Of a DNA stretch of 33,101 nucleotides, positions 1 through 32,338 are shown in pieces; the first letter of the stretch is position 1; every line of letters starts with the position of its first letter. The notes beneath the pieces are model-generated. The model was not told the origin of the DNA and searched no databases. It saw only the letters and a list, made by a program, of their open reading frames with translations. A program made the position numbers and the translations under genes. This DNA is from Acidimicrobiia bacterium. Lineage in GTDB: Bacteria > Actinomycetota > Acidimicrobiia > Acidimicrobiales > JBBRKR01. The stretch lies in the NCBI GenBank assembly GCA_043782545.1, contig JAYWAI010000248.1, positions 1 through 33,101 of the forward strand, given 5' to 3'.

Positions 1-117
1 CTCATGACGAATTTGGTGGACTGCCCGGCCGAGCACCTGAGAGTCGGCATGCCCGTCGTCGTCGATTTCCGCCCACTCACCGACGAGTTCTCCGCACCCA
101 TCTTCCGCCCTGCGTAG
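1..117 (+). CDS. 3' end of a DUF35 / OB-fold acyl-CoA-associated protein (5' part outside window)
   Basis: Frame 1 reads LMTNLVDCPAEHLRVGMPVVVDFRPLTDEFSAPIFRPA*, stop TAG at 115-117. The tail is paralogous to the C-termini of the two complete DUF35 ORFs here (..VGLPVEVTF..LPLFRP and ..IGMALEVDFE..IPVFRP). Confidence 0.6.
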   Translation, partial: LMTNLVDCPAEHLRVGMPVVVDFRPLTDEFSAPIFRPA

Positions 118-143
118 CAGCTAGTCAACTCTGAAAACGCAGG

Positions 144-1286
144 TCACACGCCGAGGATCATGGTACCGCTGGAGCAAAACCAGCCACCGGTGCCACTCAC
201 ACAGGCAAGTTTGGCGTCGGGCACTTGACGGGGGCCCGATTCACCGCGCAGTTGTCGGGCGGCTTCGACGATTAAGAAAAGCCCACGCTGGCCGGGATGA
301 CAGGCCGATAGTCCGCCGCCGTCTGTGTTGGTCGGCAACGCTCCGCCGAGTCGCAGGGCGCCCGATTCCACGAACGCCCCACCCTCGCCAGGAGCGCAAA
401 ATCCGAGATCCTCGAGTGTGATCAGCAGCATGTACGTGAACGCGTCATACAACTCGCATACGTCGATGTCGGCCGACTTCACCCCGGCTCGTTGGAAGGC
501 CAGTTTCCCAGAATCCTTGGCCGGGCCAGTAGTGAAATCGGCCCATTGGCCCATTGAAATGTGTGACGTGCTTTCGCCGGAACCCAAGACCCACACGGGT
601 TTGCGGGGAAGGTCTGCCACGCGATCTTCTGCCACGAGTACCACTGCGGCCGCGCCATCAGAGCGAATGCAGCACTGTAATTTTGTGAACGGATCGGCGA
701 TCATGGGGCCGTCAAGCACGTCGGCAATCGTGATTGGTTCGCGTGCAAATGCTTCTGGATTGTCGGCAGCATTGAAGCGTGCCGACACCGCTATCTCGGC
801 GAGTTGCTCGATCGTGGTGCCGTACTCGTGCATGTGCCGACGGGCGGCCATGGCGTACTTCGAAATGAGGGTGTGACCGTATGGCGCTTCCCACTGCATG
901 GGGCCTCGTGCGCCCCAATCCAAATTCGCCGCGCGCAAACCCTTGCGCAAGTCTGCCCGCGCCGTTGAGCCGTAGGCCAACAGCACCACGTCGGCATGTC
1001 CGGCAGATATGGCATCTGCGGCATGGGCCGCCATGATCTCCCAGGATGATCCGCCGACCGCTGTTGAATCGACCCATAGTGGTCGCAAACCCATATATTC
1101 CGCCACATCCACCGGGGCCATGGTGCCCAAGCCGGTGGACGCGAAACCGTCGATTTGATCGGGCCGCAAGCCCGCATCGGCGAGCGCTCTGCGGCTGGCT
1201 TGCGCCAATAACGCGTACGGGGTTTGGTTGTCTACCCGGCCAACTTCCGACAGTGCTACGCCCGCTATGGCCACTCGACGATTCAT
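144..1286 (-). CDS. Thiolase-superfamily protein, SCP-x / lipid-transfer-protein (Ltp) type
   Basis: 380-aa ORF. N-terminus MNRRVAIAGVALSEVGR and C-terminal NTDGGGLSACHPG..GTGG motifs are typical of SCP-x thiolase-like proteins. There is no Cys in the first ~105 residues, where the nucleophile normally sits. TACTGT lies 6 nt upstream of the ATG. Confidence 0.85.
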   Translation of the reverse strand: MNRRVAIAGVALSEVGRVDNQTPYALLAQASRRALADAGLRPDQIDGFASTGLGTMAPVDVAEYMGLRPLWVDSTAVGGSSWEIMAAHAADAISAGHADVVLLAYGSTARADLRKGLRAANLDWGARGPMQWEAPYGHTLISKYAMAARRHMHEYGTTIEQLAEIAVSARFNAADNPEAFAREPITIADVLDGPMIADPFTKLQCCIRSDGAAAVVLVAEDRVADLPRKPVWVLGSGESTSHISMGQWADFTTGPAKDSGKLAFQRAGVKSADIDVCELYDAFTYMLLITLEDLGFCAPGEGGAFVESGALRLGGALPTNTDGGGLSACHPGQRGLFLIVEAARQLRGESGPRQVPDAKLACVSGTGGWFCSSGTMILGV

Positions 1287-1300
1287 ACCCGCACAGTATC

Positions 1301-1314
1301 TGACACTTGTGTCA
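1301..1314. promoter_or_regulatory. Candidate operator, perfect palindrome TGACAC-TT-GTGTCA
   Basis: Perfect 6+6 inverted repeat in the 61-bp divergent spacer between the thiolase-like gene (start 1286, -) and the SDR gene (start 1348, +). One of nine copies in the window. Confidence 0.6.
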
Positions 1315-1347
1315 ACTCGTCGTTTCGAAGGGCGCTAGGTTGCGGCC

Positions 1348-2118
1348 ATGAGAAATCGTTTGGCAGGCAAAGTGGCGCTGGTATCCGGCTCGACGCGGGG
1401 GATTGGGCGTTCAGTCGCCGAGATGTTCTCGGCGCAAGGAGCTAAGGTCGCGGTGACGGGGCGCACGGTGGACCGGGGTGCCAAAGTGGTTGACGCCATC
1501 CGGGCCAATGGGGGCGAGGCAGAATTCTTCACGCTGGACATCACCAGTGAAGACAGCGTGCGTGATGTGATCAATGCCGTAGCTGAACGCTTCGGCGGAC
1601 TCACCACGTTGATCAACAACGCCGCGCCGACCGCCACGGTGGCACGAACAGTGAAACCATTGCATCAATACGGGACCGACGAGTGGAATGACATCCTCAC
1701 GGGAACCTTGACAGGCAACGTGTTCTGGGCGTCGAAATACGCGTGGCCATATCTCGTCGCGGCCCAAAGCTCTGCGTCGATTGTCAACATTTCGTCGGAC
1801 CAGTCGATACTGGGCTTACGCGGCTTTGGTGCTTACGCGGCGGCCAAGGGCGGCATGAATAGCGTCACTCGCACGCTCGCCGCCGAGGGAGCGGCCAACG
1901 GTATCCGGTGCAACACGATTGTGGTGGGCCGCGTCGTCAGCGGTCGCGGTGACTCCGGGGTGGGCATGACCAAAGGCGGCCTGAGCACCGTTGGCAACCC
2001 CAATCAGATTGCCGCTACAGCGCTGTTTCTGGCGTCAGATGAATCTTCATTTATCACCGGCGAACTCATCGTCGCAGACGGCGGCCTCGCTATGAACGGC
2101 GACGTCCACATGGCCTAA
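1348..2118 (+). CDS. SDR family oxidoreductase (FabG-like)
   Basis: 256 aa. Contains LAGKVALVSGSTRGIGRS (TGxxxGIG Rossmann motif), NNAA and YAAAK (YxxxK). TAGGTT lies 6 nt upstream of the ATG. Confidence 0.9.
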   Translation: MRNRLAGKVALVSGSTRGIGRSVAEMFSAQGAKVAVTGRTVDRGAKVVDAIRANGGEAEFFTLDITSEDSVRDVINAVAERFGGLTTLINNAAPTATVARTVKPLHQYGTDEWNDILTGTLTGNVFWASKYAWPYLVAAQSSASIVNISSDQSILGLRGFGAYAAAKGGMNSVTRTLAAEGAANGIRCNTIVVGRVVSGRGDSGVGMTKGGLSTVGNPNQIAATALFLASDESSFITGELIVADGGLAMNGDVHMA

Positions 2119-3164
2119 TCCTGTCGGGCGGCGAAGTGTTGGGCCAATGGGCCGAGGAGTTCTGGGACGGCGCCGTGGATGATGATCTCGTCGGCTCCAG
2201 CAGCGAGGTAATCCTGTAGCCGTGCCGCGCAATGCGCAGCCGTGCCGACAGCGGACGCTTCGCTCAGCCAGTGTTGGGGGAGCGCTCGGCTCACTTCGGC
2301 GAGTTGTTCCTTAGTGAAAATATCATCGGCGGCACCTCGCAAATTGACCAACATCGGGTGGGCGCGAAATGCGGTGAGCGCATTCACGTCCCACTGGTTG
2401 ACGGCGGCGAGCAAGTCGCCGAAGGCCGGGATTTGGTAGTACGTCACGGCCCGCCCGCCAACAATGGCGAGCTCGTGATCGCTTGTCACATCGGGAGCGG
2501 TCACCACAGTGGCGTACACCTTGACGGCGGTTGGATCGCGCCCTGCCTCGCTTGCGGCGCCTCGCACAATTGCGGCAGAGCGGGCGACCGCGTCGACGGT
2601 GAGAAACGGATGCAAAATCACGCCGTCGTAGTGCCGGCCAGCCAGCGTCAATGTGTTGGGGCCCATAGCGGCCAGCAACAGCGGAGGCGGAGGTACGGCA
2701 GGTAAGTCGCCGAGTTTGAGGGCCGGAAATTTGCCGGCGGGGCCGTCGTAACGCACCTTTTCGCCAGCGCACAATCGACGGTGGATGTCAGCGGAATCAA
2801 TCAGAATTTGATTCGACATCGGTGGGAACCCAGCGGCCCGCCACGTCGGCGCGACTGATCGACCAACACCTAACATGAACCGGCCGTTGCTGAGTGCTTG
2901 CAGCGTCATCGCCATGCTGGCCTGCGCTAACGGATGCCGAAATAGGTAGTGCGAGATACCGGTGGCAATTTTGACGGTGTGGGTGGCCTGCGCCACTGCT
3001 CCTCCAATTGCTGCCACGTCTTTGGTGCCATAACGTTCGCTGATCCACACGGTGCCGAGCCCGAGGTGCTCAGCAGTTTGGGCCTGACCTATAGCTAATC
3101 GAGGATCGGTTACCCGACCTGGCAAGAGGTACGCGCCGATCTGGTCGAGTGAAGTGGTCGGCAT
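2115..3164 (-). CDS. LLM-class (luciferase-like) F420/flavin-dependent oxidoreductase
   Basis: MPTTSLDQIGAYLLPGRVTDPRLAIGQAQTAEHLGLGTVWISERYGTKD is a typical LLM N-terminus. The ORF track starts at GTG 3182, inside the palindrome, so I prefer ATG 3164. The start is uncertain because no SD is seen. Confidence 0.8.
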   Translation of the reverse strand: MPTTSLDQIGAYLLPGRVTDPRLAIGQAQTAEHLGLGTVWISERYGTKDVAAIGGAVAQATHTVKIATGISHYLFRHPLAQASMAMTLQALSNGRFMLGVGRSVAPTWRAAGFPPMSNQILIDSADIHRRLCAGEKVRYDGPAGKFPALKLGDLPAVPPPPLLLAAMGPNTLTLAGRHYDGVILHPFLTVDAVARSAAIVRGAASEAGRDPTAVKVYATVVTAPDVTSDHELAIVGGRAVTYYQIPAFGDLLAAVNQWDVNALTAFRAHPMLVNLRGAADDIFTKEQLAEVSRALPQHWLSEASAVGTAAHCAARLQDYLAAGADEIIIHGAVPELLGPLAQHFAARQD

Positions 3165-3174
3165 CGGCGTATTC

Positions 3175-3188
3175 TGACACACGTGTCA
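3175..3188. promoter_or_regulatory. Candidate operator, perfect palindrome TGACAC-AC-GTGTCA
   Basis: Perfect inverted repeat filling the 18-bp gap between the LLM (-) and kinase (+) genes. The right half-site GTGTCA equals codons 1-2 (GTG TCA) of the kinase ORF. TATTCT lies at 3170-3175. Confidence 0.6.
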
Positions 3189-4271
3189 CATGTCGTTCCC
3201 GCTAGAGACCCGGTCGAGACGGCCAACACGTTGGCGATGTGGTTAGCCGCGCGAATGTCTGTCGAAGCGGTCGAAGTTGTCAACCTGTCGATTCCGGCTG
3301 CGGGGTTTTCCAATGAGACCATTTTGGTGACGGCACGATGGATAGCGAATGACGGAGCGCAGAACTCCTGTGATTTCGTGTTGCGTATTGAGCCGACGAG
3401 TCATCAATTGTTTGCTCAGCCCGACGCGATCCGACAGGCACGGGTGATGCAAGGATTGCAGGGCCGTGTCCCGGTCCCAAACGTGCTCTTTACCGAATCT
3501 GAGAATGGCTACTTTGGGGCGCCGTTTTACGTAATGGAACGCGTGAACGGGCGCGTGCCTGGCGATGTGCCGAGCTTCCACAAGCGGGGCTGGGTGGCAG
3601 AGTTAACACCGCAAGAGCGAGCGACGCTGCACCGGAACGCCGTTGGATCGTTGGTCGACCTCCACTCGATCCCCAACTCGACCGAGTTAAAATTTCTGGC
3701 CCAAACGCCGAGCCAAACGCCGAGCCAAACGCCGAGCCGTGCATCGGCGTTGTGGCACTACGTCGACAGCGTGCGCCAGTTCCACGAACTCAGCAAGCCC
3801 ATGTTGGTGCATGATCGAGCCGTGATTGACCGAGGGTTGTCGTACGTCATCAGCGAAATGCCCGACGACAGCGCCTCGTCGGTGGTGTGGGGTGACGCAC
3901 GCGTCGGCAACATCATTTTCGCTGACGATCTCTCCGTTGCCGCCTTGGTCGACTGGGAGGGAGCCACGGCCGGGCCGCCAGAAATCGACGTGGCGTGGTG
4001 GGGCATGTTCGACGAATTCCTCTGCGAGTGTCAAGGTCTCGTTCGGCTCGATGGGGTACCGACGCCGCAATCGTTTCTCGAGCAGTACGAGGCGCTGAGC
4101 GGTCGTCGGCTGGCCAACCTCAACTACTACCGTGTGTTATCCACCCTCGTGTTTTCGCTCATCAACAGTCGCCTGGCCGCGTTGTTGGTCGACACGGGAA
4201 AATCGACACCCGAGTTCGCCCGCCAAATAGTGACACGGGTGACCTCCATGATGCGCCAATCCTTGGGGTGA
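3183..4271 (+). CDS. Phosphotransferase-family protein (APH / acyl-CoA-dehydrogenase-associated kinase fold)
   Basis: 362 aa. Contains GFSNETILV, the catalytic-loop-like VVWGDARVGNIIF, and VDWEGATAGPPEIDVAWW (the DWE motif of APH-type kinases). The GTG start at 3183 is probably leaderless. Confidence 0.8.
   Translation: MSHVVPARDPVETANTLAMWLAARMSVEAVEVVNLSIPAAGFSNETILVTARWIANDGAQNSCDFVLRIEPTSHQLFAQPDAIRQARVMQGLQGRVPVPNVLFTESENGYFGAPFYVMERVNGRVPGDVPSFHKRGWVAELTPQERATLHRNAVGSLVDLHSIPNSTELKFLAQTPSQTPSQTPSRASALWHYVDSVRQFHELSKPMLVHDRAVIDRGLSYVISEMPDDSASSVVWGDARVGNIIFADDLSVAALVDWEGATAGPPEIDVAWWGMFDEFLCECQGLVRLDGVPTPQSFLEQYEALSGRRLANLNYYRVLSTLVFSLINSRLAALLVDTGKSTPEFARQIVTRVTSMMRQSLG
3701..3738 (+). 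repeat. Perfect 12-bp tandem repeat (ccaaacgccgag x3.2), in frame
   Basis: Units at 3701-3712, 3713-3724 and 3725-3736, plus 2 nt. Encodes QTPSQTPSQTPS inside the kinase ORF. Confidence 0.9.
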
Positions 4272-4292: not shown

Positions 4293-5033
4293 CTAGCGCC
4301 CTTCGCCAAGGTACGCGGACTCGAGCAGTGACGGATCCTTGCGAAATTCGGCGGCGTTGCCGTACATCGAAACACTGCCGTGGACGAGCACCATTGCCTC
4401 ATCGGCCACCTCGAGAGCCAAGCCGATGTGTTGCTCTACGAGCACCACCGCCGCACCAGTATTGTCAGCAATTTGGCGCACGACGGGCAGTAGTGACTCC
4501 ACAATGATCGGAGCCAGCCCCATGCTCATCTCGTCGACAAGAAGGACTTTGGGTTGTTGGACGAGGCCGCGAGCCATGGCCAACATTTGTTGCTCACCGC
4601 CCGAGAGTGCGCCAGCTTTGATTTTTATTCGGGTGCGTAGGGAGGGGAAGAGATCCAGAACGTAATCGATGTTCTTAACGCCCTTGGGACGAGCGATTTC
4701 GATATTTTCCTTCACTGTCAACGTGGTGAACAGTGCTCTGTTGTCGGGCACTAGGACGACACCGGACAAATTCGCAGCCGACGGCTTACCACTCGATAGC
4801 GACTTTCCGTTGAGCAAAACGTCCCCGAGAATGCGCGGTAGCAATCCAGCCATTGTCATCATCAACGTTGATTTCCCGGCACCGTTCGGACCAAGTACAG
4901 CGAGCACTTTCCCCGGTTGCAACCGCAGGTTGAGATCTCGAAATCCCACGATTTTGCCGTATCCGCCGACGAGATTGCGGCACTCCAACACCGGCGTGTC
5001 GTGCGGTTCTATGGCGGGTGATTCGGCGATCAT
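4293..5033 (-). CDS. livF: Branched-chain-amino-acid-type (HAAT family) ABC transporter ATP-binding protein, LivF-like
   Basis: 246 aa. Walker A GPNGAGKST, signature LSGGEQQML, Walker B LLLVDE. ATGA overlap with the upstream fused permease/ATPase gene. Confidence 0.9.
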   Translation of the reverse strand: MIAESPAIEPHDTPVLECRNLVGGYGKIVGFRDLNLRLQPGKVLAVLGPNGAGKSTLMMTMAGLLPRILGDVLLNGKSLSSGKPSAANLSGVVLVPDNRALFTTLTVKENIEIARPKGVKNIDYVLDLFPSLRTRIKIKAGALSGGEQQMLAMARGLVQQPKVLLVDEMSMGLAPIIVESLLPVVRQIADNTGAAVVLVEQHIGLALEVADEAMVLVHGSVSMYGNAAEFRKDPSLLESAYLGEGR

Positions 5034-7840
5034 TGCATGACCTCTTCGATCATTGATTCACCATGAGACTCGCCATGCGTCGTGCCCAAGTAGGCGTCGA
5101 TAACTCGCCGATTGCTCCGTATTTCTGCTGGCGTTCCTTGTGCGATGAGCTGACCAAAATCGAGCACCACGATGTAGTCGCAGAGGCCCAATACCAAATT
5201 GACATCATGGTCGACCATCAGGATGGTTGCTCCCATGTCACGAATATCTCGCAATCGTTCGCTGAGCCACTCGCTCTCCATCGAATCCAATCCAGCTGCC
5301 GGTTCGTCCAGAAGCAGCAAGTCGGGCTCAGCCACCAGTGCCCGACCAATTGAAACCAGTTGCCGTTGCCCCTGGGATAAATCGCCTGCCGGACGATCAC
5401 GAAGATCGCCGATACGCAGGGTTCCAATTGTGCGATCCAAGCTGGCTTTCGAGACGGCGCCAAAACCTTGGCGACCGCTGGCCAAACCAACCGTAAGGTT
5501 TTCTTCGACGGTGAGATCTTCGTACAGCTCGATGGCTTGAAAGGTTCTGGTCAGGCCGAGTTTGACCCGCTGATGCGGACGTTTGCCTTCGAGGTCAACG
5601 CCGTTGAGAGAAATACGTCCAGTCGAGTTGGCGAATCCGGTGAGGGCATCGATGGTGGTGGTCTTGCCTGCGCCATTGGGGCCGATGAGGCCAACAATGG
5701 CCCCCTGAGGTACGTCGAATGACACGTCGTTGACTGCCACTACGCCGCCGTAGGCAACACGTAGATTTTCGACGCGCAACAGGGTGGGCGCATCCGTGAG
5801 GTCGATTGTTTGACGCTGCGAAACGCTCGAAGTTGTGATGTCAGACGCCATGTCACCACCAGATCCTCGTAGTCGCTTTCTGGTTTTTTCGCGCACGTCT
5901 CTGACCATCAAATGGGCAGGGCCGGTGATGCCTTCTGGATTGGTAATCACTGTCACAATCAGCAAAACGGCAGTCACGATTTGGTACCACTTGCCGAGTG
6001 AAAACCATTTGTTGGTGGCGTAGTACACCACGGCGCTACCTCCGAGGAATCCAGCGGCAACACCGCCGGACACTGAGGTAATGCCGGCGAGGTAGGTCGT
6101 GCTAAAGAGTCCGAGTCCGACCAGCGGGAGGTATTGAGAATCAGACGCCGTGCCGTACCGGTACGCCAACACCGTGCCACCAATACCGGCGATAAATGAG
6201 GCAATGGCAAACGCGACCAGCTTCACCCGAAAGACGTCGACGCCCGCCGCAGCAGCGGAACGTTCGTTGGCCCGTACGGCCACCATGGCTGATCCAAGAT
6301 GGCTTCGGCGCAGAAAGGCGACTCCGGTACCGGCGAGGGTAAGCACCGTGAGAGCAAAAAGGCCGAATGCGATATGCGAGGCGTTTTTTGATTGTCCGTA
6401 GTCGAGATTGATGCCAAACAGTTTCGGCTTCGGGATGTCGACACCGCCCTTGAGACCCACAATGTCGGTGTTCTTGAACCAAACGTTTTCGATAGCCACG
6501 GCCAGACTTAGCGTGACCACGGCGACGCTCAGTCCTCGAACTCGCAATGCTGGTAACCCGACGACAACGCCAAGTGCCGTGGCAAACAGGGCCGCCAAAA
6601 TTGGAGCGACGGGGAATGGGATACCCCACTCCTTTGCTATGTAACTCAGCGAGTAGGCGGCAGTGCCCGCCAACGTGAGTTGAGCTAGTGAGATTTGGCC
6701 GGCATATCCCGAAACGACCACTAGTGACAATGAGAGCGTCCCGAATATCAAGCTGATGATGTAGGCCTGACGCCATTCGCCGTGTAAGGCGAGCAGTGCC
6801 AAAATTCCCAGGGCCACGCTGATGGCGGCAGTGGCGGGCACGTTGCGCGGTCGCGGCGCGCGGCCGAGCGATCGTTGCAACAATGCGCCACGTTCGGGCA
6901 ATGGTTTACCGCGCACGACGAGTACGAGTAACACGATGACGAGCGGCACAAGTTCCGGGCCCCCCACTTTGGGAAACCACGAAAACGTTTGCGGGAGAAA
7001 CAGTGTTTCTGATCCCAGCATGCCAATTGCCAGACCGCCGGCGGCGGCGAGGCCGAGGTGTTCGAATCGCCCTAGCACCGCGGCCGCCAGGGCGGGAATG
7101 ATGTAGAACGTGTAAGCCAACGGTGGTGGAGTTATCGAGCTCATCGAGGCGATCAAGATCCCCGCTAAGCCGGCCACGACCGATGACAACATCCAGTTGA
7201 TTGCCGCAACTCGTTGGGGCGAAATGCGGCTCACGGCCGCCCCTTTTTCCGTCTCGGCGGCGGCGCGGGTAGCTAGGCCGAACCGTGTGTATTTGAAACC
7301 TACGCCGAGCACTGCCGCCAGGATGATCACCGTGAGGGCAAACCACAATCGGTCAGTCGACACAACGGCGGCGCCGAGTTTGAACTTCGACGTGGGATAG
7401 ATCTTTTTTGACTTGGCGCCGCTGGCTCCAGCTTTGTTGACGGTGAGCGTGACGAGCAGAATTTGCACGCCGAGCGACGCCACGACTTTGGCCACGGGCG
7501 GCGCCGCTCTCAGCGGCCGGAAAACGGCCAAATACAACGTCAGGCCGAGCAGCGCTGACAGTGTGAGCGAGATAGCAAACCCGGTGTACACGTTAGGCAT
7601 AAACGGCAATTTGTACGTCTTGTCAAGGCCCGGCAATAGCGGCAGAAACTGTCCATCGCGCAAGTACGAGTAGACGTACGCGGCATACAGAGCGATTGAT
7701 CCAGTGGCGAAGTTGATGACACCGGAGCTGCGGTAGGTGACCACCAGAGCAATAGCCAACGCAGCAAACACTGCTCCGTTCCCCGTGCCAAGTAAGAGAT
7801 TGCCAAGATGACTCATTGTCGAAAAAATCCGTTCAGTCAA
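5030..7840 (-). CDS. Fused LivH-LivM-LivG polypeptide (two permease domains plus an ATPase domain)
   Basis: Uninterrupted 936-aa ORF. Residues ~10-330 are LivH-like (GVINFATGS..). Residues ~340-650 are LivM-like (LSLVVVSGYAGQISLAQ..). Residues ~680-936 are LivG-like (GLIGPNGAGKTT, LSQGQRQLV, LLLLDEPAAG). TTG at 7840 is the track start; the first ATG is at 7816. Confidence 0.85.
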   Translation of the reverse strand: MTERIFSTMSHLGNLLLGTGNGAVFAALAIALVVTYRSSGVINFATGSIALYAAYVYSYLRDGQFLPLLPGLDKTYKLPFMPNVYTGFAISLTLSALLGLTLYLAVFRPLRAAPPVAKVVASLGVQILLVTLTVNKAGASGAKSKKIYPTSKFKLGAAVVSTDRLWFALTVIILAAVLGVGFKYTRFGLATRAAAETEKGAAVSRISPQRVAAINWMLSSVVAGLAGILIASMSSITPPPLAYTFYIIPALAAAVLGRFEHLGLAAAGGLAIGMLGSETLFLPQTFSWFPKVGGPELVPLVIVLLVLVVRGKPLPERGALLQRSLGRAPRPRNVPATAAISVALGILALLALHGEWRQAYIISLIFGTLSLSLVVVSGYAGQISLAQLTLAGTAAYSLSYIAKEWGIPFPVAPILAALFATALGVVVGLPALRVRGLSVAVVTLSLAVAIENVWFKNTDIVGLKGGVDIPKPKLFGINLDYGQSKNASHIAFGLFALTVLTLAGTGVAFLRRSHLGSAMVAVRANERSAAAAGVDVFRVKLVAFAIASFIAGIGGTVLAYRYGTASDSQYLPLVGLGLFSTTYLAGITSVSGGVAAGFLGGSAVVYYATNKWFSLGKWYQIVTAVLLIVTVITNPEGITGPAHLMVRDVREKTRKRLRGSGGDMASDITTSSVSQRQTIDLTDAPTLLRVENLRVAYGGVVAVNDVSFDVPQGAIVGLIGPNGAGKTTTIDALTGFANSTGRISLNGVDLEGKRPHQRVKLGLTRTFQAIELYEDLTVEENLTVGLASGRQGFGAVSKASLDRTIGTLRIGDLRDRPAGDLSQGQRQLVSIGRALVAEPDLLLLDEPAAGLDSMESEWLSERLRDIRDMGATILMVDHDVNLVLGLCDYIVVLDFGQLIAQGTPAEIRSNRRVIDAYLGTTHGESHGESMIEEVMQ

Positions 7841-26864: not shown

Positions 26865-27290
26865 ATGCCGTTTCAACCATTGCCCACGATTACTGATGAC
26901 ACCGCGCCGTTTTGGGAAGGTGGTGCCGTCGGCGAATTGCGCATCAACCGATGCCGATCCTGCCGCACCTGGTTTCACCCGCCGGCGCCGGTATGCCCTG
27001 AATGTCTGACTATGGACGTGGGCCCAGAAGTGGCCAGCGGTCGTGCCACAGTGGCAGCCTTCACCGTCAATATGCAGCAATGGTCGCTCGACATGGTGGT
27101 GCCCTTCGTGTTGGCCATCGTGGACCTCGACGATCAACCAGGTGTCCGGTTGATGACGCGCATGGTCGACTGCGCTGCTGACGACATGCATGTTGGGTTG
27201 CCGGTCGAGGTCACATTTCAGGCGGCCCAAGACATGTGGTTGCCGTTGTTTCGGCCCTGCTCGGGCAATGACTCGGCGGTGTCGGTATGA
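26865..27290 (+). CDS. DUF35 OB-fold / Zn-ribbon protein (thiolase partner)
   Basis: 141 aa from ATG 26865 (AGGGAAGG RBS). Contains FWEGGAVGELRINRCRSCRTWFHPPAPVCPEC followed by an OB-fold tail. Confidence 0.85.
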   Translation: MPFQPLPTITDDTAPFWEGGAVGELRINRCRSCRTWFHPPAPVCPECLTMDVGPEVASGRATVAAFTVNMQQWSLDMVVPFVLAIVDLDDQPGVRLMTRMVDCAADDMHVGLPVEVTFQAAQDMWLPLFRPCSGNDSAVSV

Positions 27291-28474
27291 CCCCCAGAAT
27301 TGGCGAACGCGACACCCTCATTTCGGGAATTGGGCAGTCGGCGATCGGCCGAAAGTTGGGTCGCACGGGTCTGTCGCTCACGGTGGAAGCGTGTTTGGCG
27401 GCGATAGCCGACGCTGGCTTATCGCGCGACGATATCGACGGCGTGTCGAGCTACCCCGGAGCCATGGACGCCTCGCCTGGCATGTCGCCAACGGGCGTGC
27501 ATGAGCTCAAAGACGCGCTTCGATTGCCGGTGAATTGGTTCTGCGGTGGCGCCGAAACGCCGGGGCAGTTGGGCGCGGTATTTAACGCCATTGCCGCGGT
27601 GTCGGCCGGGCTGGCGAACCATGTGTTGGTATTTCGCACGGTTACCGAATCCAGCGCTCAGACCGCCAGCCGCCGTGCCAGTGTGGTGGGCGGTGGCGGC
27701 CGAGTGGGTGGTGTCATGCAATGGATGGTGCCGTTTCACGCGGTGAGCGCGTCGAACTGGGTGGGGATGTACACCCAGCGCTACATGCACGACTACGGCC
27801 TGACCCGAGAGCAACTCGCCCAAATTCCGCTCAACGCCCGCCGGCACGCGGCGCTCAATCCGAACGCCATTTTCCGGGACCCGCTCACTCTTGATGACTA
27901 CATGAACGCCCGCATGATTTCGTGGCCGTTGTGCCTCTTCGACTGTGACATTCCGTGTGACGGCTCGTCGGCTCTGATCATCTCGCGTTCTGATGCTCGT
28001 GCTGACCTGCGCAAAGTCGTTGATATTGAGGCGATTGGTTCGGCCCTCCATGGTCGAGACTCGTGGGACCAGCGCGCCGATCTCACCGAAATGGCCAGTC
28101 ACGACGCCGCTGGCATGATGTGGTCACGTACCGACCTCAAACCCGCTGATGTCGATTCGGCGCATCTCTATGACGGGTTTTCTTACCTCAATTTGCAGTG
28201 GCTCGAAGCTTTGAATTTCTTTCGCAAGGGCGAGGCCGGCGGGTTTCTGGAGGGCGGCGAAAGTCGGATTGGGCTCGGCGGCGAGTTGCCGATGAACACC
28301 AACGGCGGCCAGCTTTCTGGGGGCCGTTTGCACGGGTATGGCTACCTGCACGAGGCATGTGTGCAGCTGCGCGGCGAGGCAACCGGCCGTCAGGTCGCAA
28401 ACGCGCAAGTGTCGGTAGTGGCCGCCGGTGGAGGTCCACTCGGCGGTTGTTTGCTGCTGACGAGCGGGCGCTAG
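27287..28474 (+). CDS. Thiolase-superfamily protein, SCP-x/Ltp type
   Basis: 395 aa. ATGA overlap with the DUF35 gene. Contains NTNGGQLSGGRLHG. A Cys is present in NWFCGGAETPG, but it is not in the usual register. Confidence 0.85.
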   Translation: MTPRIGERDTLISGIGQSAIGRKLGRTGLSLTVEACLAAIADAGLSRDDIDGVSSYPGAMDASPGMSPTGVHELKDALRLPVNWFCGGAETPGQLGAVFNAIAAVSAGLANHVLVFRTVTESSAQTASRRASVVGGGGRVGGVMQWMVPFHAVSASNWVGMYTQRYMHDYGLTREQLAQIPLNARRHAALNPNAIFRDPLTLDDYMNARMISWPLCLFDCDIPCDGSSALIISRSDARADLRKVVDIEAIGSALHGRDSWDQRADLTEMASHDAAGMMWSRTDLKPADVDSAHLYDGFSYLNLQWLEALNFFRKGEAGGFLEGGESRIGLGGELPMNTNGGQLSGGRLHGYGYLHEACVQLRGEATGRQVANAQVSVVAAGGGPLGGCLLLTSGR

Positions 28475-28512
28475 CCCCTCGCCCCTCGCTAGCCCAACGC
28501 TAGCCCAACGCT
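28470..28512. repeat. Micro-tandem repeats carrying three CTAG motifs in a convergent spacer
   Basis: The 7-mer gcccctc occurs twice (28474-28487). The 11-mer gctagcccaac occurs twice (28488-28509), plus a partial third copy. gctagccc occurs at 28470, 28488 and 28499. The stop codons of both convergent genes lie in these units. Confidence 0.7.
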
Positions 28513-29708
28513 CCGGCTTCTCGCACGGCAGTGATTTCGTCCCAATCGAATCCGGCATCCATCAGGATCGCTTCGGTGTCCTGACCCAGCTCCGGCGCGG
28601 GGCCTGCAGGAGTGGTGTGTACCCCGTCGAATTGCATGGGCGCCGCCACTAAGCGGAATTCGAGGCCGTCGTTTCCAGTCACCAAGGGTAGAAAACCATT
28701 GGGGGCCATTTGTACATGATCATGAACTTCCTTCACGTCAATGACCGGTGCCCAAACTCCGCTGAAACCATCGAACCGTTTTTTCCATTCCTCCAACGTG
28801 GCACTGCCAAAAATGTCGTCCATGACTCGAACGCATTCGGCACGGTTGACATATCGCGCTTGTGCGTTGTCGAATCGCGGGTCGGCAATGAGATCGGGGC
28901 GTTGCATGACGCCGCACAATTCACCCCAGAAACGGTCGGCCTGCAGGAGCACTAAATACAGCCAGCGTTCGTCGGACGTTTTGTACCAATTGGTCAGCGG
29001 GTTACCCGGCTCCTCCCGTGAGGTCGTCATGCTCTGCGCCAAATAGGGGGCGCTCACGATGTCGCACGCCATCGACCACATGCCGACGTTGAGAAGCGAC
29101 ACGTCCACGATCGATGGTTCGCCGGTGTTGGCCCGCTTGAACAACGCCATGGCGATCGCTCCCGCAATGGTGTTGCCACCTTGGAGGTCATAGAACGCCG
29201 GTGGTTGCGGGGGAGGGGTCTTGGTCGGTGATTGGTTGGCGAGCCGATTGGCAAACCCCGAGGAGGCCCATGCCGCGGCCAAGTCGTAGCCGCCCACATT
29301 TTTCATAGGGCCTTGGCTGCCCCAACCGCTCCCGCACACAAAGATGATGTTGGGATTGGCCTGTCGGATCACGTCAATGTCGATATTCAGTTTCTGGCGA
29401 GTCTCGGGCAGGTAGCTCGTGAGGAAAACGTCGCTCACCGCGGCGATCTTCAAGAGTGTCTCGCGCCCCGCTGGAATGCTCAGATTCAGTGTGATGCTGC
29501 GCTTGCCCCGGTTGGGAATTTCGTTAAACGGGTTCGGGCCCGCACTCTCGAAATTCAACATGTTCTTCAAGCCACGCTGAGGGTCGCCCGTTGGGGGCTC
29601 TACTTTAATGACATCAGCGCCGAGGTCGGCCAAGATGGCCCCTGCCGCGGGCACAAACGTCCAGGCGGCAACTTCGAGAACACGTACACCTGCAAGTGGT
29701 TTGGTCAT
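28500..29708 (-). CDS. Family III CoA-transferase (CaiB/BaiF; same fold as alpha-methylacyl-CoA racemase)
   Basis: MTKPLAGVRVLEVAAWTFVPAAGAILADLGADVIKVEPPTGDPQRG is the hallmark N-terminus. I prefer ATG 29708 over 29723, which lies inside the palindrome. Confidence 0.9.
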   Translation of the reverse strand: MTKPLAGVRVLEVAAWTFVPAAGAILADLGADVIKVEPPTGDPQRGLKNMLNFESAGPNPFNEIPNRGKRSITLNLSIPAGRETLLKIAAVSDVFLTSYLPETRQKLNIDIDVIRQANPNIIFVCGSGWGSQGPMKNVGGYDLAAAWASSGFANRLANQSPTKTPPPQPPAFYDLQGGNTIAGAIAMALFKRANTGEPSIVDVSLLNVGMWSMACDIVSAPYLAQSMTTSREEPGNPLTNWYKTSDERWLYLVLLQADRFWGELCGVMQRPDLIADPRFDNAQARYVNRAECVRVMDDIFGSATLEEWKKRFDGFSGVWAPVIDVKEVHDHVQMAPNGFLPLVTGNDGLEFRLVAAPMQFDGVHTTPAGPAPELGQDTEAILMDAGFDWDEITAVREAGALG

Positions 29709-29717
29709 ATGCAATTC

Positions 29718-29731
29718 TGACATATGTGTCA
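29718..29731. promoter_or_regulatory. Candidate operator TGACAT-AT-GTGTCA (1 mismatch)
   Basis: Lies in the divergent spacer between the CoA-transferase (-) and the isochorismatase-like pair (+). The left flank TC extends the symmetry. Confidence 0.5.
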
Positions 29732-29776
29732 GCTATGGTGGCGATTCGACCGGGAGGGACATTTGCCGTGGAGAAA

Positions 29777-30409
29777 ATGCCGAAAACCATTCGAGGACTC
29801 GAGGCGGGCAAACGTCCGGCGCTGGTGATTAGCGAGTGCCAGCGCGGCATTTTGGACCCTGCGCTCACCACGATTGGCGGCCTCGCTGCGCAAGCTGCGG
29901 AGCGAAACATGTTCGTGCATATTGCGCGCCTGGCTGACGCGTTTCGGGGCGCGAATCTACCGGTTGTTCATGCGCATATTGGGTTCCTGCCGGGCTACGC
30001 GGGTGCGGCATTGACGAGCCCCATGATGGGCATGTCGCGCCGCAACAACAAGCTGATGTTGGGCTCGCCCGATGCCGAACCAATGCCGGGTGTCGAACCG
30101 CAGCCCGGCGATTTCGTGTCGCTTCGCCACTCTGGCCTGGTGATGTGGGAAGGCACCCACATCGATTCGACTTTGCGAAATTGCGGCGTCGATACGATCG
30201 TGTTTACCGGCGTGTCCACCAACTTGGCGTTGTTTGGCGGCACGCTCGGTGCAGTGGAGCGGGGGTATTACGCGGTGATCCCCGAGGATGCCACCTCAGG
30301 CGCATCAGCAGAATCGCATCAATGGATGCTGCAAAATTCGTTAAATTTGTTGGCCTGGATCTCGTCCGTCGACGCCGTCATCGATGCCATTTCGCGGTTG
30401 TCAACATGA
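29777..30409 (+). CDS. Isochorismatase-family (cysteine-hydrolase fold) protein
   Basis: 210 aa from ATG 29777 (GGAG 4 nt upstream). Contains PALVISECQRGI and IVFTGVSTNLALFGG. ATG 29735 is an alternative start. Confidence 0.7.
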   Translation: MPKTIRGLEAGKRPALVISECQRGILDPALTTIGGLAAQAAERNMFVHIARLADAFRGANLPVVHAHIGFLPGYAGAALTSPMMGMSRRNNKLMLGSPDAEPMPGVEPQPGDFVSLRHSGLVMWEGTHIDSTLRNCGVDTIVFTGVSTNLALFGGTLGAVERGYYAVIPEDATSGASAESHQWMLQNSLNLLAWISSVDAVIDAISRLST

Positions 30410-31059
30410 GTACGCCAAGCGATCGGTTTCGCCAAATCGTTGATCCGTCGCACACCGCCGTGGTAACCATGGAGCTGCAACGGGGCATCGTGGGCGACCA
30501 GGCCGTGTTGCCGGCATTGCCCGTAGCGGTGCGTGAAGCGGGCATGCTCGAGATCGCGGGACGTGTGTGCCGGGCGGCGCGAATTGTGGGTGCTCGTGTT
30601 GTGCACGCCACCATGGAAGAGCGAGCCGACGGCCTCGGCCAGGCGGTCAACTGCAAGATATTTTCGATTGTGGCCAAGCGCAGGGCCGAGGTCGGGTTTT
30701 CACCCACCGAAATTGGTCAACCAGGGGCCGAACTCGTGGAAGAACTCGACGTGCAGCCAGCCGACGTGAAGGTGGCGCGTATGCACGGCATGACTCCGTT
30801 TACTGGTACGGAACTCGACGCCGTCATTCGCAACATGCGTGTCACCACAATCGTGCTCATGGGCGTCTCGCTCAATCTGGGCATTATCGGAGCGGCACTC
30901 AGTGCGCTTGATTTGGGATACCAGGTAGTGGTTGTTCGTGACGCCGTCGTGGGTTTGCCCAAGGCATATGCGGACGCGGTGCTCGAAAATTCGATCGCCA
31001 TGATTGCTACGGTTGTGACCGCCGATGAGTTGATCGCCGCATGGGGCGAGTCTTTGTAG
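30406..31059 (+). CDS. Isochorismatase-family protein (paralog of the preceding gene)
   Basis: 217 aa from ATG 30406 (ATGA overlap). Contains TAVVTMELQRGI and IVLMGVSLNLGIIGA. Confidence 0.75.
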   Translation: MSTPSDRFRQIVDPSHTAVVTMELQRGIVGDQAVLPALPVAVREAGMLEIAGRVCRAARIVGARVVHATMEERADGLGQAVNCKIFSIVAKRRAEVGFSPTEIGQPGAELVEELDVQPADVKVARMHGMTPFTGTELDAVIRNMRVTTIVLMGVSLNLGIIGAALSALDLGYQVVVVRDAVVGLPKAYADAVLENSIAMIATVVTADELIAAWGESL

Positions 31060-31069
31060 GCCGTGCGTT

Positions 31070-31501
31070 CTAGATGTCGGGAAAGATCGAGTCGGGCACT
31101 TTGCCGTCGACCGTTACTCGTCGCTCCGCAAAGCGCCACTGGCCGTCCACGACGCGGTAGCTGTCGACGTAGCGTCCCCAATGATCAAGCCCAATTGGCG
31201 TGATGACCGAGAAATACACGCGCCCCGTGGCATGGGCCTCATCAACGAGGTCGATCTGATGCGTGGACGTCGAATGGCGTAGGTACGCCGGCGTGTCGTG
31301 GCCGGCGATCTGGGATTGCGTGTTGGTGAAAATGGTCATGACTTCGTCGATGCCGACATAGCTCTGACCCATGAGATGCATTGACGCGTCGAGCGCAAAC
31401 AATGGCCGCACCTGGGCGAAACGCCCGCTGTCGCCGTTGGCGTTGTACCGCGTCACCAAATCTCGGATGCTTTCGCGTGCGATGACTTCCCACAGTTCCA
31501 C
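31070..31501 (-). CDS. NTF2-like / SnoaL-family protein
   Basis: 143 aa from GTG 31501 (GGGGAG 6 nt upstream). The pattern I..L..RY....D......LF..D... and the C-terminal WRFAERRV are typical of SnoaL_4/NTF2 folds. The 294-aa track ORF extends antisense into the next gene. Confidence 0.65.
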   Translation of the reverse strand: MELWEVIARESIRDLVTRYNANGDSGRFAQVRPLFALDASMHLMGQSYVGIDEVMTIFTNTQSQIAGHDTPAYLRHSTSTHQIDLVDEAHATGRVYFSVITPIGLDHWGRYVDSYRVVDGQWRFAERRVTVDGKVPDSIFPDI

Positions 31502-31518
31502 TGAGTTCTCCCCAAAAT

Positions 31519-31532
31519 TGACACATGTGTCA
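31519..31532. promoter_or_regulatory. Candidate operator, perfect palindrome TGACAC-AT-GTGTCA
   Basis: Lies in the 75-bp divergent spacer between the SnoaL-like gene (-) and the HSD10-like SDR (+). Confidence 0.6.
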
Positions 31533-31576
31533 GATCCCGGTGAGACTACCGCACGTTTTCTTAATAGGAGTGTGTC

Positions 31577-32338
31577 ATGCAGATTCAAGGACTTCGGGCC
31601 ATGGTGGTTGGCGGCGCATCGGGCATGGCTCGCGCCACGGTCGAGCGCATCGCCGCCGGCGGCGGCAAGGTCGCCATTTTGGACCGGGCTGGGTCTGCTG
31701 GCGCTGAAGTCGCAGCCGCGGTCGGAGGTACCTATTTCGAGTGCGACATCCTGGACTATGCCGGTATCGAAATCACCATCCAAGAAGCCGTTGATGCGCT
31801 TGGTGGGCTTGACGCTGCGGTCAATACGGCCGGCGGCGGCATCGGCGCCAAGACCCTCACAAAAGACGGACCGCACCCGCTGGAATCGTTCCGTGGCGTC
31901 ATCGAGCTCAATCTGGTGGCCACGTTCAACCTCAACCGATTGCAAGCATTCCACATGAGTAAGAACGAGCCCAACGAAGACGAGGAGCGCGGCGTGATCA
32001 TCAACACGGCGTCAATTGCTGCGTTCGAAGGGCAGATCGGCCAAGTTGCCTACACCGCATCAAAAGCCGGCATTGCTGGCATGTCACTCACCATGGCCCG
32101 AGACCTCGGCTTCTACGGCGTGCGCGTGAATGCCATTGCGCCGAGCCTGTTCGACACGGGCATTACTTCGGGACTTCCTGACTCGATGAAGGGCCCGCTG
32201 ACCAAGGATGCTGCGTTCCCCAAGCGCATGGGTAAGCCCGACGAGTACGCCCGCTTGGCCGTTGCCATCATCGAAAACCCGATGCTCAACGGCGGCACAA
32301 TTCGCCTCGACGCCGGGCAACGTTTCGCCCCCAAATAG
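31577..32338 (+). CDS. SDR, type II 3-hydroxyacyl-CoA dehydrogenase (HSD10-like)
   Basis: 253 aa. Contains GLRAMVVGGASGMARAT, NTAGGG.., NTASIAAFEGQIGQVAYTASKAG and RVNAIAPSLFDT. AGGAG RBS. Confidence 0.85.
   Translation: MQIQGLRAMVVGGASGMARATVERIAAGGGKVAILDRAGSAGAEVAAAVGGTYFECDILDYAGIEITIQEAVDALGGLDAAVNTAGGGIGAKTLTKDGPHPLESFRGVIELNLVATFNLNRLQAFHMSKNEPNEDEERGVIINTASIAAFEGQIGQVAYTASKAGIAGMSLTMARDLGFYGVRVNAIAPSLFDTGITSGLPDSMKGPLTKDAAFPKRMGKPDEYARLAVAIIENPMLNGGTIRLDAGQRFAPK

Follow-up and report, generated by a model that had tools for sequence, protein, structure and literature searches.

What does a 32-kb block of catabolic genes that alternate in strand do for an uncultured bacterium, and do these genes serve one substrate? 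Acidimicrobiia are abundant in sediments, soils, and waters, nearly all of them are uncultured, and their diet is largely unknown. We analyzed a stretch of 33,101 bp from an Acidimicrobiia bacterium (contig JAYWAI010000248.1; hereafter, the window), exact copies of which were found only in sediment metagenome assemblies. The initial annotation had read positions 1-32338 as one self-contained cluster for an acyl-CoA substrate, similar to the mycobacterial igr operon and the Mce3R regulon.

We found that the same palindrome lies at every divergent promoter of the block, which agrees with the earlier view that the genes form a single co-regulated unit breaking down a bulky or branched acyl-CoA. 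The block is very probably a regulon under common control that degrades a bulky branched or alicyclic acid in a coenzyme A (CoA)-dependent way. Our preferred reading is more specific, and we give it a probability of about 0.55: a TetR-controlled pathway of CoA thioesters, predicted to degrade a methyl-branched or alicyclic acid by hydroxylation followed by retro-aldol cleavage.

Layout of the block and its shared operator

The window is ~59% G+C and almost wholly coding. Pfam and NCBIfam scans covered every long open reading frame (ORF), and short ORFs were inspected separately. There are 33 complete genes at 144-32338 and a fragment of a DUF35 gene at 1-117. Non-coding gaps are only 42-191 bp, so there is no space for overlooked genes. 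The gene families of the initial annotation were all present, together with genes it had not listed (an APH-family protein, two isochorismatase-like hydrolases, a SnoaL protein, and the tandem TetR regulator). Its absences were also borne out by the domain scans and the gap check, as the window has no MaoC, AMP-forming ligase (FadD), Mce, KshA, KstD, or Hsa genes. The gene of the DUF35 fragment begins left of the window, and the left edge of the block lies outside it. On the right, the boundary at 32338 was upheld: a VapBC toxin-antitoxin pair without an operator site adjoins the regulon. The contig extends ~3.3 kb beyond the window.

The genes zig-zag between the strands, as first described, with 8 divergent and 8 convergent junctions. 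Strand groups 1 to 5 are thl1, encoding a thiolase-fold protein (-); SDRa, a short-chain dehydrogenase/reductase (SDR) (+); an LLM-class oxidoreductase (-); an APH-family protein (+); and an ABC importer made of a substrate-binding protein (SBP), a fused permease/ATPase, and an ATPase (-). Group 6 (+) starts with P450, ferredoxin, mftSDR1, and SDRb and continues into VOC, Amidohydro_2, two acyl-CoA dehydrogenases (ACADa and ACADb), and an alpha/beta hydrolase. Groups 7 to 10 are the crotonase ECH1 (-); an NDP-forming acyl-CoA synthetase (ACS) (+); SDRc and mftSDR2 (-); and the crotonases ECH2 and ECH3 (+). Groups 11 to 16 are a tandem TetR regulator with DUF35a and thl2 (-); DUF35b and thl3 (+); a CoA-transferase (-); the isochorismatase-family genes Iso1 and Iso2 (+); SnoaL (-); and SDRd (+).

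A repeat search gave the starting clue to a common operator, namely an inverted repeat (I5) and the likeness of the gap between the LLM and APH genes to the promoter of the regulator. The candidate operator is a 14-bp palindrome with a 6-2-6 arrangement, TGACACnnGTGTCA, usually preceded by WTC. At up to 2 mismatches, TGACACNNGTGTCA has 11 matches in the window compared to 1.69 expected, and none of the shuffled sequences (0/100) reached 11. Nine of the 11 matches are in promoter gaps, one at each of the 8 divergent junctions and one upstream of the VOC operon. The shared operator of the initial annotation is thus present; we count nine transcription units, and every one has the palindrome in front of it. 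The other two matches (2 mismatches each) fall within genes, at 4231 and 20963, and we treated them as chance, since 1.7 matches are expected. There was no site in the window beyond SDRd.

We compared the window with related loci. A scan of one genome per species with the synthetase alignment gave 79 loci (numbered L), of which 58 were from close relatives, all metagenome-assembled genomes (MAGs). The nine operators, listed without strand, and their counterparts in these loci are as follows.

1301-1314: operator O1, TGACACTTGTGTCA, thl1/SDRa divergent gap
3175-3188: operator O2, TGACACACGTGTCA, LLM/APH divergent gap
9287-9300: operator O3, TGACGCGAGTGTCA, gap between the importer and P450 operons
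12506-12519: operator O4, TGACACGAGTGTCA, upstream of the VOC operon; position also occupied in L039 and L009
18405-18418: weak operator O5, TGACACGACTGTTA, 2 mismatches, ECH1/ACS gap; better copies there in L002 and L021
22295-22308: operator O6, TGACACTAGCGTCA, SDRc/ECH2 gap; identical site at the same junction in L006
26816-26829: operator O7, TGACGTTAGTGTCA, regulator/DUF35b gap; junction carries a site in L048 too
29718-29731: operator O8, TGACATATGTGTCA, CoA-transferase/isochorismatase gap
31519-31532: operator O9, TGACACATGTGTCA, SnoaL/SDRd gap

The palindrome is concentrated in the window. At up to 1 mismatch, there are 7 sites in these 33 kb and 22 in 1.46 Mb of the other loci. All but one of the 22 are outside matched genes, and about half are at homologous junctions: SDRc/ECH2 (L006), regulator/DUF35b (L048), upstream of VOC (L039; ~250 bp upstream in L009), upstream of ACS (L002, L021), and ECH1/LLM (L003, L005, L012, L023). 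A sigma-70 promoter scan of the window found 1 promoter-like site compared to 5.5 expected, and an Rfam scan of the window found no matches to RNA elements.

25434-26786, minus strand: tandem (double) TetR regulator, ~450 aa, two TetR_N stretches, TTG start after GGAGG

This protein is the sole regulator in the window. DUF35b (26865-27290) sits within the apparent 5' extension that the ORF finder gave it, and we therefore moved its start to the TTG at 26786. The halves of the protein, each with one TetR_N domain, are 28% identical, and their recognition helices are alike (VSRATLYQYF and VARGTYYRYF), which fits a pseudo-dimer reading a palindrome. We infer that the tandem TetR binds the palindrome and that O7 is a putative autoregulation site. 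Homologues of the regulator numbered 99 cluster representatives at E≤1e-30 among 1.84 billion; the best-scoring ones are mostly 410-500 aa and align across nearly the full length. Its best solved match was Mce3R, through only one helix-turn-helix (HTH; residues 32-110, E 5.6e-12), and orthology to Mce3R was rejected because nothing else matched.

A conserved core around an oxygenase-type protein

The gene at 13016-14260 had been labelled amidohydrolase-2. The PF04909 domain is there, and the hydrolase label did not survive. Amidohydrolase-related dinuclear oxygenases (AROs) are defined by an N-terminal D-x-H and a C-terminal D-x-P-H-x-D/E motif that are absent from PF04909 hydrolases and decarboxylases (PMC13154177). 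The best solved relatives of the window protein are DitZ (8uyr, E 1.6e-60, near full length) and PtmU3 (E 3.8e-35). In PMC13154177, DitZ is described as a diiron-dependent diterpenoid hydroxylase and PtmU3 as a diiron monooxygenase of platensimycin biosynthesis, both being AROs. The window protein has both motifs: SVDDHVVEP aligns with SIDDHVVEP of DitZ, and ETDYPHSDSTWP, near residue 370 (DYPHSD), aligns with CDYPHSDSTWP of DitZ. The C-terminal motif is preceded by the minimum of 200 residues that the definition requires. These features indicate that the product is probably an oxygenase-type protein (ARO) rather than an amidohydrolase, with O2-dependent hydroxylation as its predicted reaction. 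This assignment would tie the block to a described logic in which terpenoid CoA esters are hydroxylated and their rings are then opened by a retro-aldol reaction. Orthology to DitZ was rejected, since other Acidimicrobiia proteins are 54% identical to DitZ and the window gene falls in a separate subfamily. The source of the solved DitZ was sought among plasmids and was not found there; the best match was ~42% identical.

The oxygenase gene belongs to a core that is conserved in relatives. The genes of this core in the window are:

12535-13065, plus strand: VOC/glyoxalase-fold protein, single-domain (PF00903)
13016-14260, plus strand: ARO-type protein (PF04909, E 2.1e-36); start codon uncertain
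14260-15429, plus strand: ACADa, large subunit of a heteromeric acyl-CoA dehydrogenase, three ACAD domains
15426-16451, plus strand: ACADb, partner subunit, no match to the middle domain; start overlaps the ACADa stop
16463-17578, plus strand: alpha/beta hydrolase, invariant G-N-S116-G-G, D317, and H348
17562-18413, minus strand: ECH1, crotonase (Pfam/NCBIfam); start codon uncertain
18445-20547, plus strand: NDP-forming acyl-CoA synthetase, fused alpha/beta parts (CoA_binding_2, Succ_CoA_lig, ATP-grasp_5)
21371-22288, minus strand: SDRc, MFE-2/Hsd4A-type 3-hydroxyacyl-CoA dehydrogenase (PDB 7ulh, 425 bits; 2et6, 279 bits)
22331-23134, plus strand: ECH2, crotonase (Pfam/NCBIfam)

All window proteins were compared with the synthetase-anchored loci by tblastn. 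For the CoA synthetase, identity to the closest homologues is 56-66%, and the named ones are from MAGs of Acidimicrobiia, Ilumatobacteraceae, or Actinomycetota. A mycobacterial origin of the window, which the VapC (Mtu_PIN), F420, and mycofactocin families had hinted at, was rejected because the close homologues all belong to Acidimicrobiia MAGs and the G+C content is 59%. The core (VOC-oxygenase-ACAD pair-hydrolase, ECH, NDP-forming CoA synthetase, SDR, ECH) is linked and often colinear across dozens of Acidimicrobiia MAG species, so that the genes are not scattered in relatives. Six loci (L004, L006, L007, L011, L017, and L048) keep the window order, VOC-Amidohydro_2-ACADa-ACADb-hydrolase followed by ECH1-synthetase-SDRc-ECH2, and ECH3 comes next in 4/6. 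Other species have the core genes within 20 kb in a rearranged order. The oxygenase is 67-84% identical in relatives, and only thl1 (75-80%) is comparably conserved. Every locus that our gene-order analysis lists has the VOC gene directly before the oxygenase gene, and the VOC product could be an epimerase or an oxygenase partner.

Frequent companions of the core are thl1, SDRa (60-65% identical), and the LLM/APH pair. The importer, P450/ferredoxin, mftSDRs, tandem TetR, aldolase-like pairs, CoA-transferase, and isochorismatases are found only in some relatives. About half of the block is conserved, and the remainder consists of lineage-variable accessories.

Relatives also carry modules that the window lacks. 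A fused double ACAD (~700 aa) lies between ECH2 and ECH3 in L086 (14739-16850) and L087 (from 21130). In the window these two genes abut (23134-23145), indicating that the double ACAD was lost or never gained in this lineage. Just 3' of the CoA synthetase, L087 (12219-17949) has Glyoxalase, Abhydrolase_1, FAD_binding_3 monooxygenase, aldehyde dehydrogenase, and CoA-transferase genes. This set suggests ring hydroxylation and meta-cleavage, with some lineages handling an aromatic ring in the same context. Records of five loci with core orthologues (L018, L026, L038, L046, and L048) are labelled Acidobacteriota or Bifidobacterium breve, and these are probably binning or labelling errors.

The core enzymes themselves resemble known types. 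The closest solved relatives of ACADa are PDB 4x28, labelled 'acyl-CoA dehydrogenase', and Tcur3483; we take 4x28 to be the ChsE4-ChsE5 heterotetramer, a cholesterol side-chain dehydrogenase. The 2et6 match of SDRc is a (3R)-hydroxyacyl-CoA dehydrogenase. The alpha/beta hydrolase has an invariant Ser-Asp-His set and no sequence match in the PDB. A fold search returned only generic matches (TM 0.4-0.5), and a fold-based assignment was dropped.

Thiolase-fold proteins and accessory genes

Thiolases and the retro-aldolases Ltp2 (YDHF) and Sal (YDCY, Cys304) differ in active-site criteria, and in the retro-aldolases the Tyr is the catalytic base (PMC12329534). We found that none of the three thiolase-fold proteins of the window has a cysteine in the region of the thiolase nucleophile (GGSS, TSPA, and ETPG in thl1, thl2, and thl3, aligned with TcLtp2, 6ok1). 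The HDCF motif of thiolases is replaced by YDAF in thl1 and by YDGF in thl2 and thl3. Judged by these residues, thl1, thl2, and thl3 cannot be thiolases. All three keep the catalytic Tyr of the Y-D-x-F/Y retro-aldolase motif, and the best solved relative of thl2 is Ltp2 (6ok1, TcLtp2, E 3.5e-56), making the three proteins candidate retro-aldolases. The second aldolase residue is absent: the position of Ltp2 Tyr344 is H, R, and R, and the third residue of the motif is A, G, and G, respectively.

1-117, plus strand: C-terminal end of a DUF35 (OB-fold) gene; ...VGMPVVVDFRPLTDEFSAPIFRPA* can be aligned to both complete DUF35 proteins at their C-terminal ends
144-1286, minus strand: thl1, SCP2-thiolase-like, lacking both catalytic cysteines, motif YDAF (Thiolase_C_1, 203 bits; PRK06158, 425 bits, cutoff 421)
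23885-25018, minus strand: thl2, Ltp2-like thiolase fold, lacking the catalytic cysteines, motif YDGF (6ok1, E 3.5e-56)
25015-25437, minus strand: DUF35a, zinc-ribbon and OB-fold partner of thl2 (zf-ChsH2, OB_ChsH2_C)
26865-27290, plus strand: DUF35b, overlaps the thl3 start; read from sequence
27287-28474, plus strand: thl3, thiolase fold, lacking the catalytic cysteines, motif YDGF (Pfam/NCBIfam, active-site alignment)

Free-standing DUF35 proteins with two CxxC pairs are translationally coupled to thl2 and thl3; thl1 has no adjacent DUF35 partner on the same strand. The three thiolase-like/DUF35 modules of the initial annotation stood as gene families (three thiolase-like and, in that count, three complete DUF35 genes) and fell as thiolases, both cysteines being absent. 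thl2 and thl3, facing each other, account for a 94-nt inverted repeat (I1). Recent duplication was ruled out as the origin of the paralogues in the block, which are only 30-41% identical.

The remaining genes of the window are:

1348-2118, plus strand: SDRa, classical SDR (Pfam)
2115-3182, minus strand: F420-dependent LLM-class oxidoreductase (TIGR03857, 462 bits, cutoff 218); start codon uncertain
3183-4271, plus strand: APH-family phosphotransferase (PF01636, E 1e-24); true start probably 3' of the operator
4293-5033, minus strand: ABC ATPase, LivF-like (Pfam)
5030-7840, minus strand: fused LivH/LivM-type permease and LivG-type ATPase, 936 aa (BPD_transp_2 in two stretches, ABC_tran, BCA_ABC_TP_C)
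7931-9232, minus strand: substrate-binding lipoprotein (Peripla_BP_6) with a Thr-rich linker (Pfam)
9424-10623, plus strand: cytochrome P450, closest to CYP143 (PDB 8ckn/8amo, 320 bits)
10620-10811, plus strand: small 3Fe-4S-type ferredoxin, 63 aa (ORF MKISIDEQLCTGHARCV...)
10843-11700, plus strand: mftSDR1, mycofactocin-coupled (carveol-dehydrogenase-type) SDR (TIGR03971, 321 bits, cutoff 300)
11716-12486, plus strand: SDRb, classical SDR (Pfam/NCBIfam)
20548-21363, minus strand: mftSDR2, mycofactocin-coupled SDR (TIGR03971, 353 bits, cutoff 300)
23145-23888, plus strand: ECH3, crotonase, EchA19-like below cutoff (PRK08252, 278 bits, cutoff 282; EchA19, 254, cutoff 400)
28500-29723, minus strand: family III CoA-transferase (PF02515, 285 bits)
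29735-30409, plus strand: Iso1, isochorismatase-family (cysteine) hydrolase (Pfam)
30406-31059, plus strand: Iso2, second isochorismatase-family hydrolase (Pfam)
31070-31501, minus strand: SnoaL_4-fold protein (Pfam); start refined to a GTG after the operator
31577-32338, plus strand: SDRd, classical SDR (Pfam/NCBIfam), labelled HSD10-like in the initial annotation; last gene of the regulon
32362-32975, minus strand: VapC (PIN) and VapB toxin-antitoxin pair (VapC, TIGR00028, 79 bits, cutoff 74)

A PDB search placed the P450 nearest to CYP143 of M. tuberculosis, an orphan (320 bits; the next match was ~175 bits), with CYP125 (169 bits) and CYP124 among the weaker matches. No NCBIfam equivalog of an enzyme from a characterized pathway scored above its cutoff; the pim, Ipd, EchA19, Bbs, Bad, and Paa models were all rejected as far below it. 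The family III CoA-transferase had no NCBIfam equivalog above cutoff; it could be a transferase or a 2-methylacyl-CoA racemase, as the family includes acyl-CoA racemases. Both mftSDRs score above the TIGR03971 cutoff, which would imply a mycofactocin system outside the Mycobacteriales.

In relatives the APH gene always comes paired with the LLM gene. The two are neighbors in L003, L004, L005, L012, L020, L023, L028, L035, L037, L052, and L057. The window has an operator between them, and on a Rhodococcus rhodochrous plasmid an APH gene is beside an ACAD gene. These pairings recall kinase/ACAD pairs that process 4-hydroxyacyl-CoA.

Three tandem repeats were seen. The APH gene has a perfect 12-nt repeat at 3701-3738 (CCAAACGCCGAG, 3.2 copies) that encodes an (SQTP)n insertion, which may be a slippage-prone loop of variable length. 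A 15-nt repeat at 9087-9136 encodes the Thr/Gly-rich linker of the SBP (TTTGATTT repeated; residues ~30-65, after the lipobox cysteine). A perfect 11-nt repeat at 28487-28512 (CGCTAGCCCAA, 2.4 copies) is found where thl3 and the CoA-transferase gene converge, and it runs into the stop codon of the latter.

Proposed pathway, alternatives, and known systems

A route for terpenoids described in PMC13599519 uses P450, dehydrogenases, CoA synthetase, a C5 monooxygenase, retro-aldol cleavage, and beta-oxidation. It occurs in platensimycin biosynthesis and is proposed for the catabolism of Ambrox, sclareol, and manool. The substrates have a gem-dimethyl or quaternary C4; a methyl group is converted to the acid and then to the CoA ester, and a crotonase-type ring hydrolysis follows ring opening (PMC13599519). 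The monooxygenase hydroxylates C5 because an ACAD cannot act beside a quaternary carbon. The window encodes all enzyme types of this route except aldehyde dehydrogenase, a true thiolase, and ferredoxin reductase.

Based on these parallels we suggest the following pathway. The tandem TetR would sit on the palindromes as a pseudo-dimer until an intermediate of the pathway, possibly a CoA ester, releases it. The Liv-type ABC system would import the acid, and the CYP143-like P450 with its ferredoxin, the mycofactocin-type SDRs, and the classical SDRs would oxidize methyl or alcohol groups. The NDP-forming synthetase would make the CoA ester, and the family III CoA-transferase would make, swap, or racemize it. 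The heteromeric ACAD, the crotonases, and the MFE-2-type dehydrogenase could run beta-oxidation-like cycles on 2-methyl-branched chains; enzymes of the same types as the ACAD pair, EchA19-like crotonase, and MFE-2-type SDR carry out the first cycle on the cholesterol side chain, a likeness that fits isoprenoid chains. If dehydrogenation is blocked by a quaternary or tertiary carbon, the DitZ/PtmU3-like oxygenase would use O2 to hydroxylate the C-H; the thiolase-fold/DUF35 pairs would next split the C-C bond in a retro-aldol reaction like those of Ltp2 and Sal. The serine hydrolase, isochorismatase-like hydrolases, VOC, F420-dependent LLM, APH, and SnoaL proteins would carry out side reactions. 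Thiolysis, ferredoxin reduction, and cofactor supply would come from elsewhere in the genome.

The substrate is most plausibly terpenoid-derived; that it is a diterpenoid or other polycyclic terpenoid acid we suggest only tentatively. A further possibility, which we regard as somewhat doubtful, is that the conserved core is an unrecognized, Acidimicrobiia-wide pathway that mineralizes acids with alicyclic rings or quaternary carbons, with hydroxylation and retro-aldol cleavage replacing thiolysis and a tandem TetR reading a palindrome at every promoter. Its substrates may be resin-acid-like or terpenoid-derived, possibly from the carboxyl-rich alicyclic fraction of sediment and aquatic organic matter.

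Several points weigh against the preferred reading. Retro-aldolase activity of thl1, thl2, and thl3 is a guess, as the second catalytic residue of both aldolase types is missing. The initial annotation's self-contained pathway did not hold: there is no true thiolase, ferredoxin reductase, or aldehyde dehydrogenase in the window, and the block depends on F420, and probably on mycofactocin, from elsewhere. The RNA runs that were searched for the window sequence gave no match. The pairing of the tandem TetR with the operator is drawn from two facts, that it is the sole regulator present and that its own promoter carries a site. The identity of the oxygenase to DitZ, ~40%, was judged by eye and not computed, and Acidimicrobiia carry DitZ-like paralogues that are closer (54%) than the window protein. 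AROs also use non-terpenoids (aminoisobutyrate, sulfonates), so the substrate class is not fixed by this assignment. Lastly, the importer, P450, regulator, and aldolase pairs vary apart from the core, and the block may therefore join several pathways.

This last point leads to an alternative that we consider unlikely, namely that the block is a catabolic island in which several independent small acid pathways accreted under one regulator. Conservation of only the core, with the importer, P450/ferredoxin, CoA-transferase, isochorismatases, aldolase pairs, and regulator being variable, is consistent with such an island, as are the other modules inserted in relatives (the fused double ACAD; the Glyoxalase/hydrolase/FAD-monooxygenase/aldehyde-dehydrogenase set) and the age of the paralogues (30-41% identity). 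However, the same operator stands at every promoter, which favors a common inducer, and the enzyme set is complementary, not redundant, except for the SDRs, ECHs, and aldolase pairs.

Our results might also indicate a cluster for degrading a sterol, hopanoid, or isoprenoid side chain, functionally analogous to the genes for the cholesterol side chain, with the genes for breaking down the rings located elsewhere. The closeness of ACADa to 4x28 (taken to be ChsE4-ChsE5) and Tcur3483, of thl2 to the side-chain aldolase Ltp2, of ECH3 to EchA19, and of SDRc to MFE-2/Hsd4A is consistent with this notion, as is the presence of CYP125 and CYP124 among the weaker P450 matches. We consider it improbable, because the window has no MaoC hydratase pair, FadA5-type thiolase, or AMP-forming ligase, the P450 is far nearer CYP143 (320 bits) than CYP125 (169 bits), and the steroid equivalog matches are all far below cutoff. 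It also leaves unexplained the invariant VOC-oxygenase pair, one of the most conserved elements. Far less probable again is that the genes make or tailor a natural product derived from a terpenoid, as PtmU3 does in platensimycin biosynthesis. PtmU3 is a solved relative of the oxygenase, and AROs do occur in biosynthetic clusters (PMC13154177). In contrast, the window has no terpene synthase, polyketide synthase, nonribosomal peptide synthetase, or prenyltransferase and encodes an SBP-dependent importer, not an exporter; its beta-oxidation enzymes and wide conservation in oligotrophic MAGs fit catabolism.

If the catabolic pathway of hydroxylation and retro-aldol cleavage is correct, the core around the DitZ/PtmU3-like oxygenase gives a handle on the attack of branched or ring-containing terpenoid-type acids that resist ordinary beta-oxidation, and its importance would grow if the substrate were a major class of recalcitrant terpenoid-derived organic matter. 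Three things are new here. The first is the conserved core of Acidimicrobiia, in which the VOC and oxygenase genes are an obligate pair and the synthetase is NDP-forming. The second is the presence of three thiolase-fold proteins, all lacking the catalytic cysteines, without any thiolase. The third is a putative nine-site palindromic regulon under a tandem TetR, a useful contrast to Mce3R. The ARO subfamily with its obligate VOC neighbor, the three non-thiolase thiolase folds, and an orphan serine hydrolase family are candidates for biochemistry. The labels 'amidohydrolase' and 'thiolase/lipid-transfer protein' can mislead in such clusters.

Is the block an instance of something known? The synteny check raised by the initial annotation found no characterized orthologous block among the synthetase-anchored relatives, all uncultured MAGs, or in literature searches, which returned nothing on the block. 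Homologues of the oxygenase on plasmids, found by tblastn, are 34-55% identical and mostly on Rhodococcus megaplasmids. The closest block found in a cultured organism is on pGD02.2.1 of R. rhodochrous GD02, with homologues of the ARO (42%), SDRa (64%), SDRc (66%), and a cysteine hydrolase (46%; Iso1 homologue), and with P450, ECH, DUF35, lipid-transfer protein, CoA-transferase, APH, ACAD, and TetR genes around the ARO gene. Its SDRa and SDRc homologues are as close as those within the Acidimicrobiia. Unlike the window, the plasmid has MaoC pairs, KstD-like FAD oxidoreductases, and a single-domain TetR, and it lacks the VOC partner and the NDP-forming synthetase. A plasmid of M. branderi has oxygenase, SDR, thiolase-like (46% to thl1), and DUF35 genes in a row, with P450, alcohol and aldehyde dehydrogenases, and ECHs nearby. 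A close DitZ relative in R. zopfii is near an AMP-forming ligase, ECH, TetR, the same ferredoxin type, SDR, and FAD oxidoreductase, a small context only partly similar to the window. By gene content, the oxygenase, SDRs, thiolase-fold/DUF35, P450, and CoA enzymes are a recurrent actinobacterial kit. Accessible records assign no function to the Rhodococcus and Mycobacterium blocks.

Compared by sequence with the features that define the igr operon, the dit cluster, and the Mce3R regulon, the block belongs to none of them. Membership in the igr/cholesterol operon (CYP125, ChsE1-E2, the MaoC pair ChsH1-H2, Ltp2) failed, the ACAD pair and Ltp2-like protein being only distant homologues. Markers of the proteobacterial dit (abietane) cluster are the ring-hydroxylating dioxygenase DitA, the extradiol dioxygenase DitC, CYP226, and an AMP-forming ligase. 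Part of this gene list is from PMC13063091, which also reports that 5-hydroxy-dehydroabietic acid accumulates in a resin-acid degrader. The dit cluster was rejected, as the window has no Rieske dioxygenase, no AMP-binding gene, and only a single-domain VOC. The operator of Mce3R is non-palindromic and is bound by two HTHs that differ from each other (PMC11667970). Like Mce3R, the window regulator has two TetR units in one ~400-450-aa polypeptide and lies among divergent lipid-type catabolic genes. In contrast to Mce3R, the similarity is limited to one HTH, the operator is palindromic and the recognition helices are alike, and there is no mce operon. The igr/Mce3R likeness of the initial annotation therefore holds for architecture and not for regulator orthology or operator type.

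Two systems come closer. The predicted chemistry resembles that of PtmU3/DitZ systems, with an ARO carrying both motifs together with P450/ferredoxin, dehydrogenases, CoA activation, crotonases, ACADs, and thiolase-fold/DUF35 proteins (list per PMC13599519). Those systems hydroxylate beside the quaternary center of diterpenoid acids or their CoA esters and then open the A-ring by a retro-aldol reaction; examples are platensimycin biosynthesis and the catabolism of abietanes, Ambrox, and sclareol. The window differs in that its ARO is always paired with a VOC protein, its CoA synthetase is NDP- and not AMP-forming, it has no DitA-type ring dioxygenase, and its host is one of the Acidimicrobiia. 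With cholesterol side-chain degradation it shares a heteromeric ACAD pair, an EchA19-like crotonase, an MFE-2-type dehydrogenase, an Ltp2-like protein with DUF35, a P450, and TetR-family control. Compared to that system (igr, ChsE4-E5/EchA19/Hsd4A/Ltp2-ChsH2), the window lacks MaoC hydratases, FadA5, FadD, CYP125, and Mce, its DUF35 proteins are free-standing, and the catalytic pair of Ltp2 is half conserved. As the initial annotation had held, this is not the canonical cholesterol pathway. The block, in its predicted enzymes, resembles both the PtmU3/DitZ-type and the steroid side-chain systems and is a member of neither.

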